Made by a program: the position numbers and the translations under genes
In this document: one piece after another, positions 189 to 12,040 of the stretch
Position numbering within the stretch: the stretch's first letter is position 1
Layout of the letters: each line of letters opens with the position of its first letter
Virus record (IMG/VR): IMGVR_UViG_2751185968_000006
Length of the DNA stretch: 12,040 nt
Reading direction: 5' to 3' (one strand)
From: a virus
Taxonomy: Duplodnaviria; Heunggongvirae; Uroviricota; Caudoviricetes
Notes under the pieces: model-generated
The model's input: the letters and a program-made list of their open reading frames with translations, nothing else
Databases searched by the model: none
Told to the model about the DNA's origin: nothing

Positions 189-243
189 GCAAGCACCTTA
201 AAATCACCATCATACACTAAATCAGTAAGTTGGCAGCATTACC
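1..243 (-). mobile_element. IS1-family insertion sequence, partial; continues beyond the left window edge, terminal inverted repeat ends at 243
   Basis: Reverse complement of 232-243 is GGTAATGCTGCC, followed by AACTTACTGATTTAGTGTATGATGGTG, matching the IS1 left terminal repeat as recalled. The insA reading frame follows on the minus strand. Confidence 0.85.
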
Positions 244-2605
244 AATTAACGGAGGGTATCAGTACATTGAAATGAATGGTACCGCAGAATACTCAGTATT
301 AAATGACGGTTATCAAATTGTTCAAATGGGTGGCGCGGCAAACCAGACTACCCTCAATAATGGTGTGCTACAGGTTTATGGCGCAGCGAATGATCCCACG
401 ATTAAAGGCGGGCGCTTAATCGTTGAAAAAGATGGGATTACCGTCCTTGCCGCTATCGAAAAGGGAGGATTACTGGAGGTTAAAGAGGGGGGATTAGCGA
501 TTGCGGTAGATCAGAAAGCAGGCGGTGCTATTAAAGCAAGCACGCGGGTCATGGAGGCATTCGGAATAAACCGTCTCGGTCAGTTCGAAATCAAGAATGG
601 TATTGCTAACAATATGCTGTTGGAAAACGGCGGAAGTTTGCGAGTTGAAGAAAATGACTTCGCTTATAATACTACTGTAGATAGTGGCGGCTTACTGGAG
701 GTTATGGATGGCGGGACTGCAACTGGCGTTGATAAAAAAGCAGGCGGAAAATTAATTGTCTCAACGAATGCGCTGGAAGTGAGTGGTACAAACAGTAAAG
801 GCCAATTTAGTATAAAAGATGGTGTGTCAAAAAATTATGAACTGGATGATGGTTCCGGGCTCATTGTTATGGAGGACACGCAGGCCATTGATACTATCCT
901 TGATGAGCATGCCACTATGCAATCGCTGGGAAAGGATACTGGTACGAAAGTGCAGGCAAATGCGGTATATGATCTCGGTCGATCAGACCAGAATGGAAGT
1001 ATCACGTATTCCTCTAAAGCCATCTCTGAAAATATGGTTATCAACAATGGCCGCGCTAATGTCTGGGCTGGCACAATGGTTAACGTGTCAGTCAGAGGGA
1101 ATGATGGCATTCTTGAGGTCATGAAGCCGCAAATAAATTATGCACCCGCTATGTTGGTGGGTAAGGTAGTGGTTTCTGAGGGCGCTTCTTTTAGAACGCA
1201 TGGTGCCGTGGATACCAGCAAAGCGGACGTTTCGCTCGAAAATAGCGTATGGGCCATCATTGCCGATATCACTACGACGAACCAAAACACCCTCCTCAAC
1301 TTAGCCAACCTTGCGATGTCTGACGCAAATGTGATTATGATGGATGAGCCAGTGACTCGTTCATCAGTGACGGCAAGTGCGGAAAATTTCATTACGTTGA
1401 CCACCAATACCCTGTCGGGAAACGGCAATTTTTATATGCGTACCGATATGGCTAATCATCAGAGCGATCAGCTCAACGTCACCGGTCAGGCAACAGGTGA
1501 TTTCAAAATATTCGTGACGGACACCGGTGCCAGCCCGGCAGCAGGAGATAGCCTTACACTGGTAACAACGGGCGGCGGTGATGCTGCATTTACGTTGGGC
1601 AATGCCGGAGGCGTTGTTGATATCGGTACGTATGAATATACCTTGCTGGATAATGGCAACCATAGCTGGAGTTTGGCAGAGAATCGCGCGCAAATTACCC
1701 CTTCAACCACTGATGTGCTGAATATGGCGGCCGCACAACCGCTGGTATTTGATGCAGAACTGGACACCGTGCGTGAGCGTCTTGGTAGCGTAAAAAGCGT
1801 TAGTTACGATACGGCGATGTGGAGTTCGGCAATTAACACCCGCAACAACGTGACCACTGATGCGGGAGCTGGTTTTGAGCAAACATTGACGGGCCTGACG
1901 CTCGGTATCGATAGCCGTTTCTCCCGTGAAGAAAGCAGTACAATTCGCGGCTTGTTCTTTGGTTACTCTCATTCTGATATTGGTTTTGATCGCGGCGGAA
2001 AAGGTAATATCGATAGCTATACCCTGGGGGCTTATGCCGGTTGGGAGCATCAGAACGGTGCCTATGTTGATGGGGTGGTGAAAGTTGACCGTTTTGCCAA
2101 CACCATCCATGGCAAGATGAGTAATGGGGCAACAGCGTTTGGCGATTACAATAGTAACGGCGCGGGTGCTCATGTTGAGAGCGGGTTCCGTTGGGTTGAC
2201 GGATTGTGGAGTGTTAGACCCTATCTGGCCTTTACCGGCTTTACCACAGATGGTCAGGACTACACGTTATCAAACGGCATGCGCGCTGATGTGGGAAATA
2301 CCCGGATATTACGCGCTGAAGCGGGAACGGCGGTAAGCTATCACATGGACCTGCAAAATGGTACGACGCTGGAACCCTGGCTGAAAGCCGCCGTACGTCA
2401 GGAATACGCCGATTCTAACCATGTGAAAGTTAATGACGATGGCAAATTTAATAATGATGTGGCTGGAACCCCTGGCGTTTATCAGGCTGGGATAAGGTCA
2501 TCGTTTACCCCGACGTTAAGCGGTCATTTGTCAGTCAGCTATGGCAATGGCGCAGGGGTAGAATCGCCGTGGAATACTCAGGCGGGAGTGGTCTGGACGT
2601 TCTGA
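230..2605 (+). CDS. AIDA-I/Ag43-type autotransporter adhesin, 5'-truncated by IS1 (probable pseudogene: no signal peptide, no credible start)
   Basis: 791-aa ORF with repetitive GG-x-L-x-V passenger-type repeats and a C-terminal beta-barrel-like domain ending in aromatic residues (VVWTF). The frame runs into the IS1 terminal repeat; the only start is a TTG at 230 inside IS1, with an in-frame stop at 218-220. Confidence 0.75.
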   Translation: MAALPINGGYQYIEMNGTAEYSVLNDGYQIVQMGGAANQTTLNNGVLQVYGAANDPTIKGGRLIVEKDGITVLAAIEKGGLLEVKEGGLAIAVDQKAGGAIKASTRVMEAFGINRLGQFEIKNGIANNMLLENGGSLRVEENDFAYNTTVDSGGLLEVMDGGTATGVDKKAGGKLIVSTNALEVSGTNSKGQFSIKDGVSKNYELDDGSGLIVMEDTQAIDTILDEHATMQSLGKDTGTKVQANAVYDLGRSDQNGSITYSSKAISENMVINNGRANVWAGTMVNVSVRGNDGILEVMKPQINYAPAMLVGKVVVSEGASFRTHGAVDTSKADVSLENSVWAIIADITTTNQNTLLNLANLAMSDANVIMMDEPVTRSSVTASAENFITLTTNTLSGNGNFYMRTDMANHQSDQLNVTGQATGDFKIFVTDTGASPAAGDSLTLVTTGGGDAAFTLGNAGGVVDIGTYEYTLLDNGNHSWSLAENRAQITPSTTDVLNMAAAQPLVFDAELDTVRERLGSVKSVSYDTAMWSSAINTRNNVTTDAGAGFEQTLTGLTLGIDSRFSREESSTIRGLFFGYSHSDIGFDRGGKGNIDSYTLGAYAGWEHQNGAYVDGVVKVDRFANTIHGKMSNGATAFGDYNSNGAGAHVESGFRWVDGLWSVRPYLAFTGFTTDGQDYTLSNGMRADVGNTRILRAEAGTAVSYHMDLQNGTTLEPWLKAAVRQEYADSNHVKVNDDGKFNNDVAGTPGVYQAGIRSSFTPTLSGHLSVSYGNGAGVESPWNTQAGVVWTF

Positions 2606-5178: not shown

Positions 5179-6234
5179 TTAACCAATTTTGACGGTAACA
5201 AATTTGCGAATATCTGCCGGAACCGGCTGCGGTGCGCTGTGTGTCTGCACGTACTCAATCGCCGGATCGCCGTCCTCAATCCAGTTTTTCGGGTAGTACA
5301 TGTTTTGCGTTGCGCCCGTTCTTACCGCTTCCTGATCCATAATCGCACCATAGGCCACCAGCCCTTTATTGTTGGTGTTGCCCAGGACCAGCAAATCAGG
5401 CTCAAGGAAATATTTTTCGGTGCCGTCGCTGTCAGTGTATTTGCCGGAATAGACAATAAGAGCAATATCGCCCAGATAGCCTTTAAAGCTCACCACTTCG
5501 CCCAGGTTTTTACAGGCCATTTCTGCGGCGGATTCTGAACCACGGGAAAGATCGTACAGTTCACGGAATTTTTTAAAGCTGCGTAACGTGCGCCATACCT
5601 CAGCGCCCATAATCATGACGTTGGCGGGGCAACCTGCCTGATCTGCGTATAGTTCGATGTCATAGATTGGATCGTAAATATCTTTATCATGCTCGGACCA
5701 TTTTTTGCCGTCGGACTGCTCTATGATGTTTTTTTCCGGTATCTTCCAGTCGATTTCATAGCGTTCTATGCCTTCGCCCTCAATGATGTTTTTTCCGGTC
5801 GTTACCGCATTCACCGCCAGCCATTCCACGCGTGCCTTAATGGCGTTTATCTGGCGGCGCATGTTGCCAGTAATCAGGCGCATACGGCGATAGGTAGGGT
5901 CGTTAAGCTGTGCCGGATCTTCTCCAGCCATGCGCATGATGGTTTTCGTTGGATCGATTTCGTGCTTTGGCTTCATGTAGCCAGGTTTGATTGTGCTGGT
6001 TTCGTACCCTTTATCGCGCTGAACCTGGCTACCCACCATAGGCGAACAAAACGCCGACATGGTGACTTCTTCAATGTCCAGGGTATCCAGCATGATGTTT
6101 TGCGTGCTGAATGTCGCCACGTTCGGGAAAAACAGCGTGGTAAACAGAGGGCTGAATTTAAAATCCGCAATATCCCCGCGATTCAGGTACATAAAAAGCT
6201 GGTTAGTGTTAAGTGCCGTTGCTTTGCCTGCCAT
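5179..6234 (-). CDS. Major capsid protein, lambda gpE family (351 aa)
   Basis: Collinear similarity to lambda gpE as recalled: FKFSPLFTTLFF vs FKFDPLFLRLFF, PGYMKPKHEIDP vs PGYVKPKHEVNP, DPTYRRMRLITGNMR vs DPAYRRRRIIMQNMR, YKGYLGDIALIVYSG vs YKGMYGDVAIVVYSG, YPKNWIEDGDPA vs YPKNWVTTGDPA. Confidence 0.9.
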   Translation of the reverse strand: MAGKATALNTNQLFMYLNRGDIADFKFSPLFTTLFFPNVATFSTQNIMLDTLDIEEVTMSAFCSPMVGSQVQRDKGYETSTIKPGYMKPKHEIDPTKTIMRMAGEDPAQLNDPTYRRMRLITGNMRRQINAIKARVEWLAVNAVTTGKNIIEGEGIERYEIDWKIPEKNIIEQSDGKKWSEHDKDIYDPIYDIELYADQAGCPANVMIMGAEVWRTLRSFKKFRELYDLSRGSESAAEMACKNLGEVVSFKGYLGDIALIVYSGKYTDSDGTEKYFLEPDLLVLGNTNNKGLVAYGAIMDQEAVRTGATQNMYYPKNWIEDGDPAIEYVQTHSAPQPVPADIRKFVTVKIG

Positions 6235-7040: not shown

Positions 7041-7313
7041 TTAGCTGTCCTGGTAATTGCGCCATATTTCATCACCAGCACCATCTATACCCATTTCGGC
7101 ATAAGTGCGATCGACTGCCTTTTTCAGGTCTCCGAAATTATCCGGCGGCTCCGGTGCCCTCTGTGCCTTCCTTGAACATTCCAGCCGTCGCATCGTGATG
7201 TGATGCCGTTCCTTGTCTGTCTCCACCAGCTGCATGACTTCACCCCATCGCGCCGCCGCCCTCCGGTAAAAGCCTTTCGCCTCCAGTTCCTCCGCTATGC
7301 GGTCATGTACCAT
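7041..7313 (-). CDS. PerC-family-like transcriptional regulator (about 90 aa)
   Basis: Likely start at ATG 7313 with a strong GAGGGGGTG RBS. The protein MVHDRIAEELEAKGFYRRAAARWGEVMQLVETDKERHHITMRRLEC fits the PerC/Pch pattern (LE..G.WRRAA.RW...TD.ER) as recalled. Confidence 0.45.
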   Translation of the reverse strand: MVHDRIAEELEAKGFYRRAAARWGEVMQLVETDKERHHITMRRLECSRKAQRAPEPPDNFGDLKKAVDRTYAEMGIDGAGDEIWRNYQDS

Positions 7314-7323
7314 CGTCACCCCC

Positions 7324-7734
7324 TCAGAACGAAATATCATCACCGTAAGGGTCATCGCCTCCCGCTGGTGGCTGATTACCCTGTGTGCCTGTGGTTTTGC
7401 GTCTGTTCCCGCCTGGACGTGCCGCGCGGGCACTGATTACGCTGTCTGCGATAACCTGCCAGCCCTGCCGCGTTTCTCCGTTCTGTCCGGTCCACTGGCT
7501 TACCTGCATCGTGCCGGATACGCTGGCAACATCGCCTTTTTGATGTTTAGCCAGGAAGTCGGCCTGTTTGCCAAATGCGATGACCGATAACCATAACGTC
7601 GCCTGTCCGTCCTGTGCCTGGCTGCATGGCAAAGATACCGCCATACGCGCCAGCGTCATCGGTGTGCCCTTGCTGGTCTGTTTTACCTGCGGGTCGTCCA
7701 CCAGCCGCCCGTAAGCGGCTATCTGTGCCGTCAT
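7324..7734 (-). CDS. Single-stranded DNA-binding protein (SSB)-like, 136 aa
   Basis: N-terminus IAAYGRLVDDPQVK resembles the SSB OB-fold start (VILVGNLGQDPEVR), and the C-terminal acidic tip PYGDDISF resembles DDDIPF. The start overlaps the upstream stop as ATGA. Confidence 0.65.
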   Translation of the reverse strand: MTAQIAAYGRLVDDPQVKQTSKGTPMTLARMAVSLPCSQAQDGQATLWLSVIAFGKQADFLAKHQKGDVASVSGTMQVSQWTGQNGETRQGWQVIADSVISARAARPGGNRRKTTGTQGNQPPAGGDDPYGDDISF

Positions 7735-7982
7735 AATTCCACCTCTCCGGTTTTAACGTTGATGGTTGTTACCTGTTCCGCTTCGGCAATCTCCCGTTCT
7801 GTCAGCGTGGCAAAGTTTGCCGCCGCCGTGGTCATGAATGCGCTTATCAGGTCGGGATGTTCCTTCGCGTATCCTTCCCGCGTGTGGCGGTCTATCGTTC
7901 TGATTGCCACCTTTAAGGTGTGCTCAGTCATGTCTAACGCTTTATATTTTGGCTCTGTTCTGTCTCTGCGTTTTTGGGTCAT
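7731..7982 (-). CDS. Hypothetical protein (83 aa from ATG 7982; the supplied ORF extends to a GTG at 8012)
   Basis: ORF translationally coupled to the SSB-like gene. The upstream extension overlaps the iteron array, so the ATG at 7982 is the more likely start. Confidence 0.45.
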   Translation of the reverse strand: MTQKRRDRTEPKYKALDMTEHTLKVAIRTIDRHTREGYAKEHPDLISAFMTTAAANFATLTEREIAEAEQVTTINVKTGEVEL

Positions 7983-7993
7983 TTCTCGCAACC

Positions 7994-8181
7994 TCTCACT
8001 TTTTCGCCTCACTTTTTCAAGCGTCTCACTTCGTCGCAGTTGGGATTTTCGGTTTTTCTATGTGTGTGTTTTATAAGTATTTTTTTACCCCTCACTTTTG
8101 AGGATGTATACAGGTCGAAAAGTGAGGGAGAGCGGGCTAATTTTGGCCCTCTTTCTATCCCCCTCGCTTTTGCTCCTCACT
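7994..8181. repeat. Iteron array and AT-rich region: putative satellite origin of replication, immediately downstream of the replication gene
   Basis: Seven copies of CCTCACTTTT-like motifs: CTCACT at 7995-8000, 8008-8013, 8025-8030, 8091-8096 and 8176-8181, an inverted copy at 8118-8127, and a variant CTCGCT at 8163-8168. An AT-rich stretch lies at 8041-8087; copies 4 and 5 form 12-bp inverted arms 16 bp apart. Confidence 0.5.
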
Positions 8182-8182
8182 T

Positions 8183-8530
8183 TTATAGCGGCGCTACATC
8201 ATCCCCATCGATACTAATAACCCCATCTTTTTCCAGCTTGTACAGCCAGCGCCGGAAGTTTTTCATTTCATACCCCAGCTTTTTCATGTCATCACGTAAC
8301 AGCGGGATCGTGCACTTGTCGCCGTTCTGTGTGCGTGAACGGATGCACCCCCATAGCGCGGTATGGTTTTCCGTCTTGTTCCCTGCCTCCTCGATGCGCT
8401 CCAGTTCAACAGGAGGGCGCGGATCATCCACCACCACCAGCGACGTGATTAATTCACCGTCAGCGTCGGTAAAAAGCTCCACCACGCGTAAGTCATATGC
8501 GGCTTCTTTGAGTTCCTCCGCGTCCTTCAT
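8183..8530 (-). CDS. Replication protein, C-terminal fragment (second piece of a frameshifted primase/helicase-type gene)
   Basis: This frame stays open upstream of the annotated ATG to about 8638 and there encodes DESARGSSAFRASLDAEY, the expected continuation after the HHSGKD motif of RecA-like replication ATPases. Confidence 0.6.
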   Translation of the reverse strand: MKDAEELKEAAYDLRVVELFTDADGELITSLVVVDDPRPPVELERIEEAGNKTENHTALWGCIRSRTQNGDKCTIPLLRDDMKKLGYEMKNFRRWLYKLEKDGVISIDGDDVAPL

Positions 8531-9582
8531 TTTGGTGCATGAGATAACCAGCGCTTTGCTTCCTGCGTCCTCCCTGCGTATCCGGTATTCAGCATCCAGC
8601 GAAGCACGAAATGCACTGGAACCGCGCGCGCTTTCGTCTCATCCTTGCCGGAATGGTGAACCACCAGCACCGTGGCCCCTGTGCGTCGTTTCAGTTCGTC
8701 ACAACCACGGATAAACGCCCCCATATCACGGGAATCATTTTCATCATTCCCACCAAAGCAACGCGCCAGCGTATCCAGAATAATCATGCGTACAGGTTTA
8801 CCCGTTTCCCGCTCCACCTGACGGGCAGCGATAACCATTTCATCAACATCAAGCGGGGCAGCCGGAAAGATGGGGCGGTTTACCAGATACAGATTTTTCA
8901 CCTGCTCATCGTGCACAACCTCCCAGGCTTTTACACGACGCGGAACGCCGATACCGCCTTCACCAACCACATAGAGAACCGCACCATGTGCAACCCTGCG
9001 GCCTCCCCACTGGCGACCAGTGGCAACATGGCACGCCCACGATCCGGCAAGGAATGATTTATAGGACCCGCTAGCCCCGTATATGCTGCATAGCGATACC
9101 GCCGGAATAATCCCCTTAACCACGTAATCCAGTTGCGTGTCGTATCCGGTAGATCCAACGCTCATCGGTAGCGTGGTTTTTCGCTGGTGGTTTTTTTCTT
9201 CCACCGGCTCTTTCCCGCGCACCCGTTCCAGGTATTCGCGCCAGTTCTCCCGCATATGGCTGTGCATCCCTTCGGGGTAATAATTCGCATCAGTTACACC
9301 CGCCGCCGCCAGCTTGTGCGCAATGGCATTAATATTTGATGGCCTGATGTGGCCTGCCTTGTACAGCCGGACACAATAGCGCCCCTCGTCGATGATTCTC
9401 AGGTCTGCCAGTTCATCCAGTTGATCATCAGCCAGCACAACGGGAGGCACATTATCGCCAGCCAGTCGCCCGTCCTGTTCCTGCCACTGTTTTGCATGTG
9501 CCCAGGCATCACTACCCGCAAAAATAATGACTTCGGTCATCTTGTCGTAAGGCTGTTTTTTTAAGTTCGGTGCGCTTTTCAT
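8527..9582 (-). CDS. Primase/helicase-type replication protein (RepA-like P-loop ATPase), N-terminal fragment ending prematurely after a frameshift
   Basis: Walker A GASGSYKS, Walker B MIILDTLARCF, then VLVVHHSGKDE typical of RepA-like helicases. The frame then reads TKARAVPVHF... to a stop at 8527, just downstream of a (CG)4 tract at 8623-8631. Confidence 0.75.
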   Translation of the reverse strand: MKSAPNLKKQPYDKMTEVIIFAGSDAWAHAKQWQEQDGRLAGDNVPPVVLADDQLDELADLRIIDEGRYCVRLYKAGHIRPSNINAIAHKLAAAGVTDANYYPEGMHSHMRENWREYLERVRGKEPVEEKNHQRKTTLPMSVGSTGYDTQLDYVVKGIIPAVSLCSIYGASGSYKSFLAGSWACHVATGRQWGGRRVAHGAVLYVVGEGGIGVPRRVKAWEVVHDEQVKNLYLVNRPIFPAAPLDVDEMVIAARQVERETGKPVRMIILDTLARCFGGNDENDSRDMGAFIRGCDELKRRTGATVLVVHHSGKDETKARAVPVHFVLRWMLNTGYAGRTQEAKRWLSHAPK

Positions 9583-9878
9583 TTCTTGCCCCTGAATCCG
9601 TTAATCATGGTTTTCAGCTTCTGGATGTTTGCCCGTGCCCTGGCGTTGCTGGTGGGCACGTTATGCGGCGCGGTCTGTACCAGAGAAAAATCACGCCGGA
9701 ACTGATAAACAGGCATCACGCAATCATATTCGTAACCTTCACGGCGGTAGGTTACACGCCGTTCTTCCACGCCCTTAATCATTACCGTGCCGCCGTACTG
9801 GTCGCGGTAAATATCACCGCGCGTAAATTTAGGGTGAGTGTTGCCACTGGCAGTTAAGCCAGAATATTTAAGTTTCAT
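9579..9878 (-). CDS. Hypothetical protein (99 aa), coupled to the replication gene
   Basis: ORF in the tiled minus-strand operon; its stop overlaps the replication gene start (ATGA). Overlapping plus-strand ORFs have junk-like composition. Confidence 0.45.
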   Translation of the reverse strand: MKLKYSGLTASGNTHPKFTRGDIYRDQYGGTVMIKGVEERRVTYRREGYEYDCVMPVYQFRRDFSLVQTAPHNVPTSNARARANIQKLKTMINGFRGKK

Positions 9879-11452: not shown

Positions 11453-11659
11453 TTAAGCAGCCGTTCCGCGTGCTTCCTGTTCGCGTTCTTTCTGCCAGGC
11501 CAACACATCATCCTCATACCATCCGCGACGGCGTAAACCAACGCGAAAACCCTGCGGAAATTCTCCGGCGTTGATCATGCTTTGCAGCGTGCTGTCTGCC
11601 TTGATGTGGATAATTTTTTTTACTTCCTGGCGAAAGATAATTTTTCTGATTGCTTCCAT
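11453..11659 (-). CDS. alpA: AlpA-family (phage excisionase/regulator-like) DNA-binding protein, 68 aa
   Basis: KADSTLQSMINAGEFPQGFRVGLRRRGWYEDDVLAWQ matches the AlpA/Xis-type pattern (...FP.P.K.G.R...W...EV..W) as recalled. Confidence 0.7.
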   Translation of the reverse strand: MEAIRKIIFRQEVKKIIHIKADSTLQSMINAGEFPQGFRVGLRRRGWYEDDVLAWQKEREQEARGTAA

Positions 11660-11764: not shown

Positions 11765-12040
11765 GGTAATGACTCCAACTTACTGATAGTGTTTTATGTT
11801 CAGATAATGCCCGATGACCTTGTCATGCAGCTCCACCGATTTTGAGAACGACAGTGACTTCCGTCCCAGCCTTGCCAGATGTTGTCTCAGATTCAGATTA
11901 TGTCGCTCAATGCGCTGAGTGTAACGCTTGCTGATAACGTGCAGCTTTCCCTTCAGGCGTGATTCATACAGCGGCCAGCCATCCGTCATCCATACCACGA
12001 CCTCAAAGGCCGACAGCAGGCTCAGAAGACGCTCCAGTGT
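11765..12040 (-). mobile_element. IS1-family insertion sequence, partial; right terminal repeat at 11765, continues beyond the right window edge
   Basis: GGTAATGACTCCAACTTACTGATAGTGTTTTATGTTCAGATAATGCCCGATGAC from 11765 matches the IS1 right terminal repeat as recalled. The insB frame follows on the minus strand. Confidence 0.9.
11780..12040 (-). CDS. insB: IS1 InsB transposase, C-terminal part (gene runs off the window edge)
   Basis: Minus-strand translation [86 protein letters not shown] matches the InsB C-terminus as recalled; it is in frame to the window edge. Confidence 0.85.

Follow-up and report, generated by a model that had tools for sequence, protein, structure and literature searches.

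A probable replication origin in a likely remnant of an Escherichia coli phage-inducible chromosomal island, and a single Rep residue that follows the variable base of its iterons

A stretch of 12,040 nucleotides assigned to a tailed virus (IMG/VR record IMGVR_UViG_2751185968_000006, Caudoviricetes), referred to here as the window, carries a cluster of short repeats between a replication gene (rep) and a small open reading frame (ORF). The question raised by this locus is which protein reads these repeats, and for what purpose. We consider it very likely that the array serves as the origin of replication in an E. coli-type phage-inducible chromosomal island (PICI), whose Rep helicase would read the 10-bp iteron AAAAGTGAGG (in the sense of rep) through a winged-helix domain. 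This reading is built on the position of the array, its conserved layout, the concerted change of its copies, their co-variation with one Rep residue, and the inheritance of rep and iterons together as a cassette. The coordinates of all features are collected in Table 1.

The host element of the window is most probably a decayed E. coli PICI. Positions 7700-8600 are 99.7% identical to a locus found in many O157:H7 genomes, where it is annotated as an island with phoQ and roxA on either side. The O157:H7 island contains an integrase, an AlpA-type regulator, Icd-like genes, DUF4222 and a 466-aa "helicase RepA family protein" (WP_000833628.1); after rep come the same intergenic region, the 83-aa ORF, and SSB, PerC, capsid, decoration and small-terminase genes. 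Gram-negative PICIs are recognized by int, alpA and rep-ori together with interference/packaging genes, all pointing the same way and spanning about 10-15 kb, and the O157:H7 locus (99.7% identical) carries this full gene set. The window has AlpA-like, DUF4222, frameshifted rep, ssb, perC, capsid and decoration genes, with an IS1 fragment at the place expected for int. When aligned, its two rep ORFs correspond to the single 466-aa rep of O157:H7, broken in two where one nucleotide near 8631 has been lost; compared with the intact gene, the missing nucleotide falls in a GCGCGCGCC run, and the 5' ORF runs out of frame past the deletion. The frameshift in rep and the IS1 in the integrase's place indicate that the island is a decayed remnant, probably immobile. 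Among the complete E. coli genomes compared, the best match to the whole window reached about 94% identity over 83% of its length. Since the yejO autotransporter flanks the island of the window, whereas phoQ and roxA flank the O157:H7 copy, the chromosomal sites differ. In PV15-279, 36 kb selected according to map position contained no island.

Several gene calls touch the array or its border. The 83-aa small ORF gave no match in Pfam or NCBIfam; it is conserved, and lies directly after the origin in PICIs of either Rep type. Its start is ATG 7982, as given by the RefSeq annotation of the O157:H7 locus and by the conservation of this ATG in relatives, and the GTG at 8012 proposed by mechanical ORF calling, inside iteron c2, was rejected on the same grounds. 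Mechanical ORFs running over the array (7974-8714 and 7904-8101, both on the plus strand) were also rejected as genes, being unannotated in most RefSeq relatives and showing indels among relatives. A 50-aa RefSeq "hypothetical protein", WP_001372362.1, lies within the iteron region of E423 (L004:1810-1962) and UMNF18 (L169:1848-2000); it is probably a spurious call, judging from the repeat structure and the lack of conservation.

Table 1. Position, strand and description of the features of the window discussed in the text.
Feature	Position	Strand	Sequence or remark
791-aa autotransporter (AIDA, Pertactin, Autotransporter domains)	230-2605		Left flank of island; yejO in best-matching genomes
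Lambda-E-type capsid gene	5179-6234	minus	
perC-family gene	7041-7433	minus	
ssb	7324-7734	minus	Pfam SSB
Conserved 83-aa small ORF	7731-7982	minus	Function unassigned; RefSeq annotation of O157:H7 locus (L001)
Intergenic region, 200 nt	7983-8182		Between rep and small ORF
Decayed eighth iteron	7984-7993	minus	GGTTGCGAGA; CCTCAC/CCCCAC intact in relatives
Exchangeable cassette	7985-9216	minus	Helicase core, winged helix and iteron region; Rep the only protein inside
Iteron c1	7994-8003	minus	Plus strand TCTCACTTTT, rep sense AAAAGTGAGA; distal set, variant
Iteron c2	8007-8016	minus	Plus strand CCTCACTTTT, rep sense AAAAGTGAGG; distal set
Iteron c3	8024-8033	minus	Plus strand TCTCACTTCG, rep sense CGAAGTGAGA; distal set, variant
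AT-rich tract	8034-8089		Proposed DNA unwinding element; 68% A+T overall
Iteron c4	8090-8099	minus	Plus strand CCTCACTTTT; arm of inverted pair, adjoins AT-rich tract
Spacer of inverted pair, 18 bp	8100-8117		GTATAC at centre, 8106-8111
Iteron c5	8118-8127	plus	Plus strand AAAAGTGAGG; sole inverted copy, other arm of inverted pair
Iteron c6	8162-8171	minus	Plus strand CCTCGCTTTT, rep sense AAAAGCGAGG; rep-proximal set, variant
Iteron c7	8175-8184	minus	Plus strand CCTCACTTTT, rep sense AAAAGTGAGG; rep-proximal set, overlaps rep stop
rep pseudogene, 3' part	8183-8530	minus	Separate 115-aa ORF; linker and (modelled) C-terminal winged-helix domain
rep pseudogene, 5' part	8527-9582	minus	351-aa ORF; N-terminal domain and RecA-fold helicase core (AAA_25)
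DUF4222 gene	9579-9878	minus	
AlpA-like gene	11453-11659		
IS1 transposase fragment	11780-11998		Pfam E 3.4e-38; just past AlpA-like gene

Seven copies of CCTCACTTTT are found in 7994-8184, four exact and three variant (c1, c3 and c6), with one of the seven (c5) inverted. Allowing at most one mismatch, CCTCACTTTT has seven matches in the 12,040-nt window, where 0.77 would be expected; six of the seven lie within 7994-8184, and a count of seven was reached by none of 200 dinucleotide-preserving shuffles. The 7-nt core CTCACTT also has seven matches in the window (0.80 expected), six of them in 7995-8182, and this search picks up c3, the more diverged copy; neither search detected a second cluster of the motif within the 12-kb window. 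The c6 site has an intact CTCAC/CCCAC in relatives, and the overlap of c7 with the rep stop codon (8183-8185) is conserved in position in all the relatives examined. Copies c4-c7 lie on the rep side of the AT-rich tract, and c1-c3 together with the decayed copy on its far side, giving at least three copies on each side; c5 alone is inverted, the flanking sets otherwise sharing the same orientation. As the small ORF starts at ATG 7982 and not at GTG 8012, the distal iterons c1-c3 stand upstream of it (12-51 nt from its start codon) and not inside it. The GAGAGG of c1, 9 nt ahead of this ATG, may double as the ribosome-binding site of the small ORF.

Copies c4 and c5 form an inverted pair with perfect arms of 11 bp (8089-8099 and 8118-8128), and the adjoining DNA at 8040-8087 is 75% A+T, vs. 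51% for the window. The preliminary description, made from the letters of the window, had recognized an iteron array flanking an AT-rich stretch directly downstream of the replication gene, all of which is confirmed here, the arrangement being on the minus strand. Its seven copies with one inverted also stand, but three copies rather than one are variants; its start at 7994 is right, whereas the last base is 8184 and not 8181; and its inverted pair is indeed centred on GTATAC, although with arms of 11 bp around 18 bp instead of 12 bp around 16 bp. A search for DnaA boxes with up to two mismatches gave none inside the array, the sole match being at 8199-8207, in the rep coding region. Scans of the array for IHF and Fis sites, GATC and 13-mers returned nothing but weak Fis-like matches in A/T runs.

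The helicase core of Rep belongs to Pfam AAA_25 (E 1.6e-43), the only Pfam match of the protein; the search gave no Rep_3-type domain, and the P4 primase match found in the alternative cassette of EcN is absent from the Rep of the window. A PDB sequence search with full-length Rep yielded only a weak match, to the RepA helicase of RSF1010 (1g8y, E 0.0055). The 115-aa ORF was modelled with AlphaFold2 from a shallow alignment of 20 sequences (19 homologues), giving a mean pLDDT of 76; the model contains helices at residues 54-68, 75-84 and 92-101 followed by a beta hairpin at 105-114, with 10-residue pLDDT means of 88-96 across residues 51-115. The best low-rmsd Foldseek matches against the PDB are winged-helix DNA binders (LexA, DtxR, IclR-type, HrcA, DnaD-N and MCM8-WH), all of them weak (E of at least 0.058) and taken as fold-class support only. 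The C-terminal segment of Rep is confidently modelled as a winged-helix DNA-binding domain. Helix 3 is the recognition helix of winged-helix proteins, and its first turn commonly contacts bases. The residue that co-varies with the iterons (see below), Asn91 of the 115-aa ORF and Asn442 of intact Rep, is placed by the model immediately before helix 3, at the start of the predicted recognition helix. The ATG of the 115-aa ORF overlaps the stop of the truncated ORF (ATGA, 8527-8530), so that a free DNA-binding domain could conceivably be made.

The intergenic region of the window was aligned with its counterparts from six relatives in E. coli, at 82-99.7% identity. All seven sequences have their copies at the same positions, one of them inverted, and retain the T/A-rich tract, and the TATAC(A)GGT of the spacer is invariant. 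The motif itself changes in concert: all copies have CTCAC in four sequences, and all have CCCAC in the other three. At the same loci the C-terminal segment of Rep reads K-N-F with CTCAC and K-H-F with CCCAC, and this on two sequence backgrounds.

A wider sample comprised 160 further loci with Rep relatives, 80 from bacterial assemblies (one genome per species) and 80 from IMG/VR, the DNA after the rep stop codon being taken from each. The motif of this sample, in rep sense, is AAAAGTG-N-GG, usually with three to six direct copies and exactly one inverted. Unique protein/DNA combinations with at least three strict iteron copies were counted: Asn at Rep residue 442 goes with A as the dominant variable base (50 unique combinations), His and Lys with G (37 and 21, respectively) and Ser with C (6), and there are no off-diagonal residue-base combinations in this strict set. 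Loci with fewer strict copies have variant cores (ATGAGG, TGGGGGA or GTGCGGCA) and still obey the rule, and with a relaxed core residue 442 predicts the variable iteron base in 145/145 loci (87 unique). Among the columns of the last 126 residues at these 145 loci (relaxed core), H(base|residue) equals 0 only at residue 442; in the second-best column 0.35 bits remain, with seven residue states. When the sample is narrowed to 22 unique E. coli-like proteins, 12 of A-type and 10 of G-type, residue 442 is again the sole perfect column. On a neighbour-joining tree of the C-terminal domain built with the residue-442 column removed, Fitch parsimony needs at least eight base switches and at least nine residue switches, and N/H pairs are seen between C-terminal domains 95-98% identical; with at least eight independent switches and such pairs, the association is not the product of one inherited event. 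The co-variation points to co-evolution of Rep and the repeats; that replication initiates at the array goes beyond what it can show. The base following GG also follows the Rep type in the wider sample (L009-L168), being A for Asn and His, G for Lys (90%) and C for Ser (100%).

The layout of the repeats recurs in E. coli, Xenorhabdus, Pectobacterium, Morganella, Kosakonia, Pantoea, Kluyvera, Rosenbergiella and others, with the same order across genera: 2-3 proximal iterons, ~30 nt, the inverted iteron, a TATA-centred spacer, a direct iteron, the AT-rich tract and 3-4 distal iterons. With a strict pattern, the inverted pair is present in 94 of 136 unique related regions, with a core-to-core spacing of 24 nt in 57 of these and 26 nt in another 33, the remaining four having 25 or 27 nt; TATA occurs in 91 of the 94 spacers, across genera, and median A+T in relatives is 76% over the 45 nt that follow the inverted pair. 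In UMNF18 (L169) the inverted-pair core occurs a second time, in partial form (CCTCACTTTTGCGTATATATAAGGATTAAAAAGTGAG), past the main array and ahead of a ProQ/FinO-family gene, some 280-320 nt downstream of where rep stops.

Rep and iterons are also inherited together. The window is homologous to an EcN-type PICI locus (L007) up to 7984 and again from 9217, and hundreds of genomes align to the query only as far as about 7985-7989. Between the homology breaks L007 encodes a 584-aa P4-family primase/helicase as initiator, as does L008, and at the same position both loci carry many GGTAGA(N)AG repeats, in both orientations and in two iteron groups. These breaks, together with the alternative Rep and repeats between them, indicate that a single cassette made up of helicase core, winged helix and iterons is exchanged as a whole. 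The first ~120 Rep residues, which have no Pfam match, are common to RepA-helicase-type and P4-primase-type initiators, at about 88% DNA identity (window 9217-9582, L007:4978-5352), and the recombination joint of the cassette falls inside the rep gene. Packaging genes are unchanged when the rep-iteron cassette differs. In UMNF18 the same rep and iteron layout is followed by the ProQ/FinO gene in place of the small ORF and ssb. When L002 and L006 are compared with L001, L003 and L004, the RepA-type rep-origin cassette is seen both beside a lambda-E-type capsid gene and, in capsid-forming-PICI-like islands, beside a ClpP-protease/capsid fusion gene; one rep-origin cassette in both capsid contexts suggests that the replication module moves between satellite types.

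By comparison with characterized systems, the layout and logic of the candidate origin are already known, being those of the SaPI/PICI type. The Rep proteins of SaPIs are helicases that load themselves, and with a C-terminal winged helix they bind iterons of 5-6 nt just downstream of rep (PMC9371898). As in SaPIs and other Gram-positive PICIs, the putative origin starts right after the rep ORF, short iterons (5-6 nt core in SaPIs) flank a central AT-rich region on both sides, and a helicase serves as initiator, its C-terminal winged helix reading the iterons, as predicted for the Rep of the window (PMC9371898). Rep and ori also form matched specificity pairs in both, in the family of the window by comparison only. 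Unlike the superfamily-3-type helicases of SaPIs (PMC9371898), the Rep of the window is of the RecA-fold AAA_25/RepA type; its iterons have one orientation except for c5, whereas opposite orientation is stressed in the SaPI description; the conserved TATA-centred spacer of the inverted pair belongs to the origin type of the window; and the iteron sequences of both systems have no similarity.

Closer to the window is the E. coli island EcCICFT073. PMC6092414 places PICI origins immediately 3' of rep, where two sets of iterons enclose an AT-rich region, and reports that ori deletion in EcCICFT073 lowered Rep-dependent plasmid maintenance, a Rep- and ori-dependence demonstrated by experiment. EcCICFT073 belongs to the same island family, with shared flanks and its origin between rep and small ORF-ssb, but is described with a different initiator (PMC6092414). 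The EcN-type loci L007/L008, whose flanks match the window, also have a different initiator, and different iterons. L007 and L008 may represent the EcCICFT073 type; unlike the window, they combine the P4-family primase/helicase of 584 aa with GGTAGA(N)AG iterons.

Other replicons resemble the window in part. The RSF1010 (IncQ) system comprises a RepA helicase, a RepC initiator and oriV iterons beside an AT-rich region, iteron binding (RepC) and helicase (RepA) being separate proteins and the iterons about 20 bp long. Its RepA (1g8y) is of the same fold family as Rep, AAA_25, whereas the helicase of the window carries its own winged helix (as modelled) and its iterons are about 10 bp. The alpha protein of satellite phage P4, which contains a helicase, binds short repeats via a C-terminal DNA-binding domain, and P4 needs a second repeat cluster (crr) in cis, at a distance. 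A P4-type ori/crr, mentioned in PMC6092414, was rejected for the window, where Rep has no P4 primase match, no second motif cluster occurs, and helicase class and iteron sequence differ. Classical iteron plasmids (pPS10, F, R6K, RK2) share winged-helix initiators, direct repeats and an AT-rich unwinding element with the putative origin, but have 17-22-bp iterons, non-helicase initiators, DnaA boxes and DnaB loading (PMC4980987). An origin of this class (Rep_3, pi or TrfA), in which the initiator has two winged helices, was likewise rejected, the window having ~10-bp iterons, no DnaA box in the array, and an AAA_25 helicase without Rep_3 as initiator. A search of the text of the literature gave no description of a RepA-type origin or of the residue-base rule. 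Fig. 2a of PMC6092414, however, presents iterons of several E. coli PICIs, and the RepA-helicase origin type may already be drawn there; the iteron sequence does not occur as text in the supplements of PMC6092414. The cf-PICI papers give no description of the ori, including that of the experimentally replicating EcCIEDL933.

The order of elements suggests how such an origin might work. Read in rep sense, it would consist of two iterons at the rep stop, the inverted pair around the TATA-centred spacer, an AT-rich tract of about 50 bp and then three or four iterons. After induction of the island, Rep would bind the iterons on both sides via its winged helix, and two helicase rings might assemble at or beside the inverted pair; the AT-rich tract (8034-8089) would then melt and the Rep helicase load itself, by analogy with SaPI Reps. 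Asn442 would read the seventh iteron base, and thereby set which origin a Rep fires. Binding, melting and initiation at the array are steps that we infer from sequence comparison. The island has its own SSB gene two genes downstream of the candidate origin. The satellite-type origin beside the initiator gene that had been proposed beforehand is favoured by the layout, the co-variation and the inheritance as a cassette, and the repair of rep that was then called for concerns the one nucleotide missing near 8631. With the origin intact but rep frameshifted, firing would be possible only if a matching Rep were supplied in trans, and the site in the window is at best a silent origin.

The same protein-DNA pairing could be explained if the repeats were Rep-binding operators only, controlling the small ORF, ssb, perC or rep while replication starts elsewhere: co-variation by itself proves a Rep-repeat relationship and nothing beyond it, the distal iterons stand 12-51 nt upstream of the ATG of the small ORF, whose likely ribosome-binding site lies partly within c1. 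We regard this as unlikely, as a scan of 7800-8400 gave no sigma-70-like promoter, an operator needs neither the AT-rich tract nor the TATA-centred inverted pair kept across genera, the protein predicted to bind is a helicase, and tested origins in PICIs (PMC6092414) and SaPIs (PMC9371898) have this very layout. The rep-iteron unit, moreover, precedes a different gene in UMNF18, which argues against an iteron role tied to the downstream gene. The overlap of iterons 1-3 with the 5' region of the next gene, suggested earlier, exists for the GTG at 8012 only and not for the real start at ATG 7982. Its corollary, regulation of that gene by the initiator, finds no backing, given the missing promoter, the location of the iterons upstream of the start, and the different gene in UMNF18. 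Alongside origin function, Rep may still have a secondary regulatory role at the iterons.

A protein other than Rep might be considered as the reader, for example a small-terminase-like protein acting at a packaging or other site, since the island encodes a terminase-small-subunit homologue and capsid genes and terminase binding sites are often repeated; yet the repeat base tracks one Rep residue exactly, the cassette 7985-9216 has no protein besides Rep, and packaging genes stay constant while the rep-iteron cassette changes, which makes this reading highly improbable. It is scarcely credible that the inverted repeat is an RNA or DNA hairpin, i.e., a terminator or attenuator after rep, with the other copies incidental. 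The pair does fold as single-stranded DNA (-9.6 kcal/mol, z -4.35), but an A-run and not a U-run follows in rep sense, the terminator scan of 7800-8400 called none on the minus strand and a single plus-strand terminator-like site, at chance level, an Rfam search of the whole window gave no family, and the inverted copy, the direct copies and a protein residue all change together. An origin of the repeats by chance or from the composition of a T-rich intergenic region is excluded: despite the strong AT skew of the region, 0/200 dinucleotide-preserving shuffles reach the observed count, and the positions are conserved across genera.

PICIs are widespread and mobilize genes for virulence and defence; once a helper phage has induced them, they need a matched pair of Rep and origin in order to replicate. 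The predicted origin of RepA-helicase-class enterobacterial PICIs, including the O157:H7 phoQ/roxA island, would now be placed in a 200-bp segment. The window itself contributes a satellite origin of standard layout, as read here, in a decayed island, and the added value lies in the residue-base specificity rule. We lean, cautiously, toward the view that residue 442 is a one-letter code for iteron base 7 (Asn for A, His or Lys for G, Ser for C), whose switching has been selected because it creates new replication-specificity groups. If this code were true, islands that share a cell or compete would neither fire nor titrate one another's origins, and origin specificity would be reprogrammable by one substitution together with the matching iteron changes. 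More speculatively, decayed islands such as this one, with an intact orphan origin and a possible free-standing winged-helix ORF, might interfere with incoming relatives. The residue-base rule could serve to sort islands into replication-specificity groups from their sequence, and offers a guide for the design of specificity swaps.
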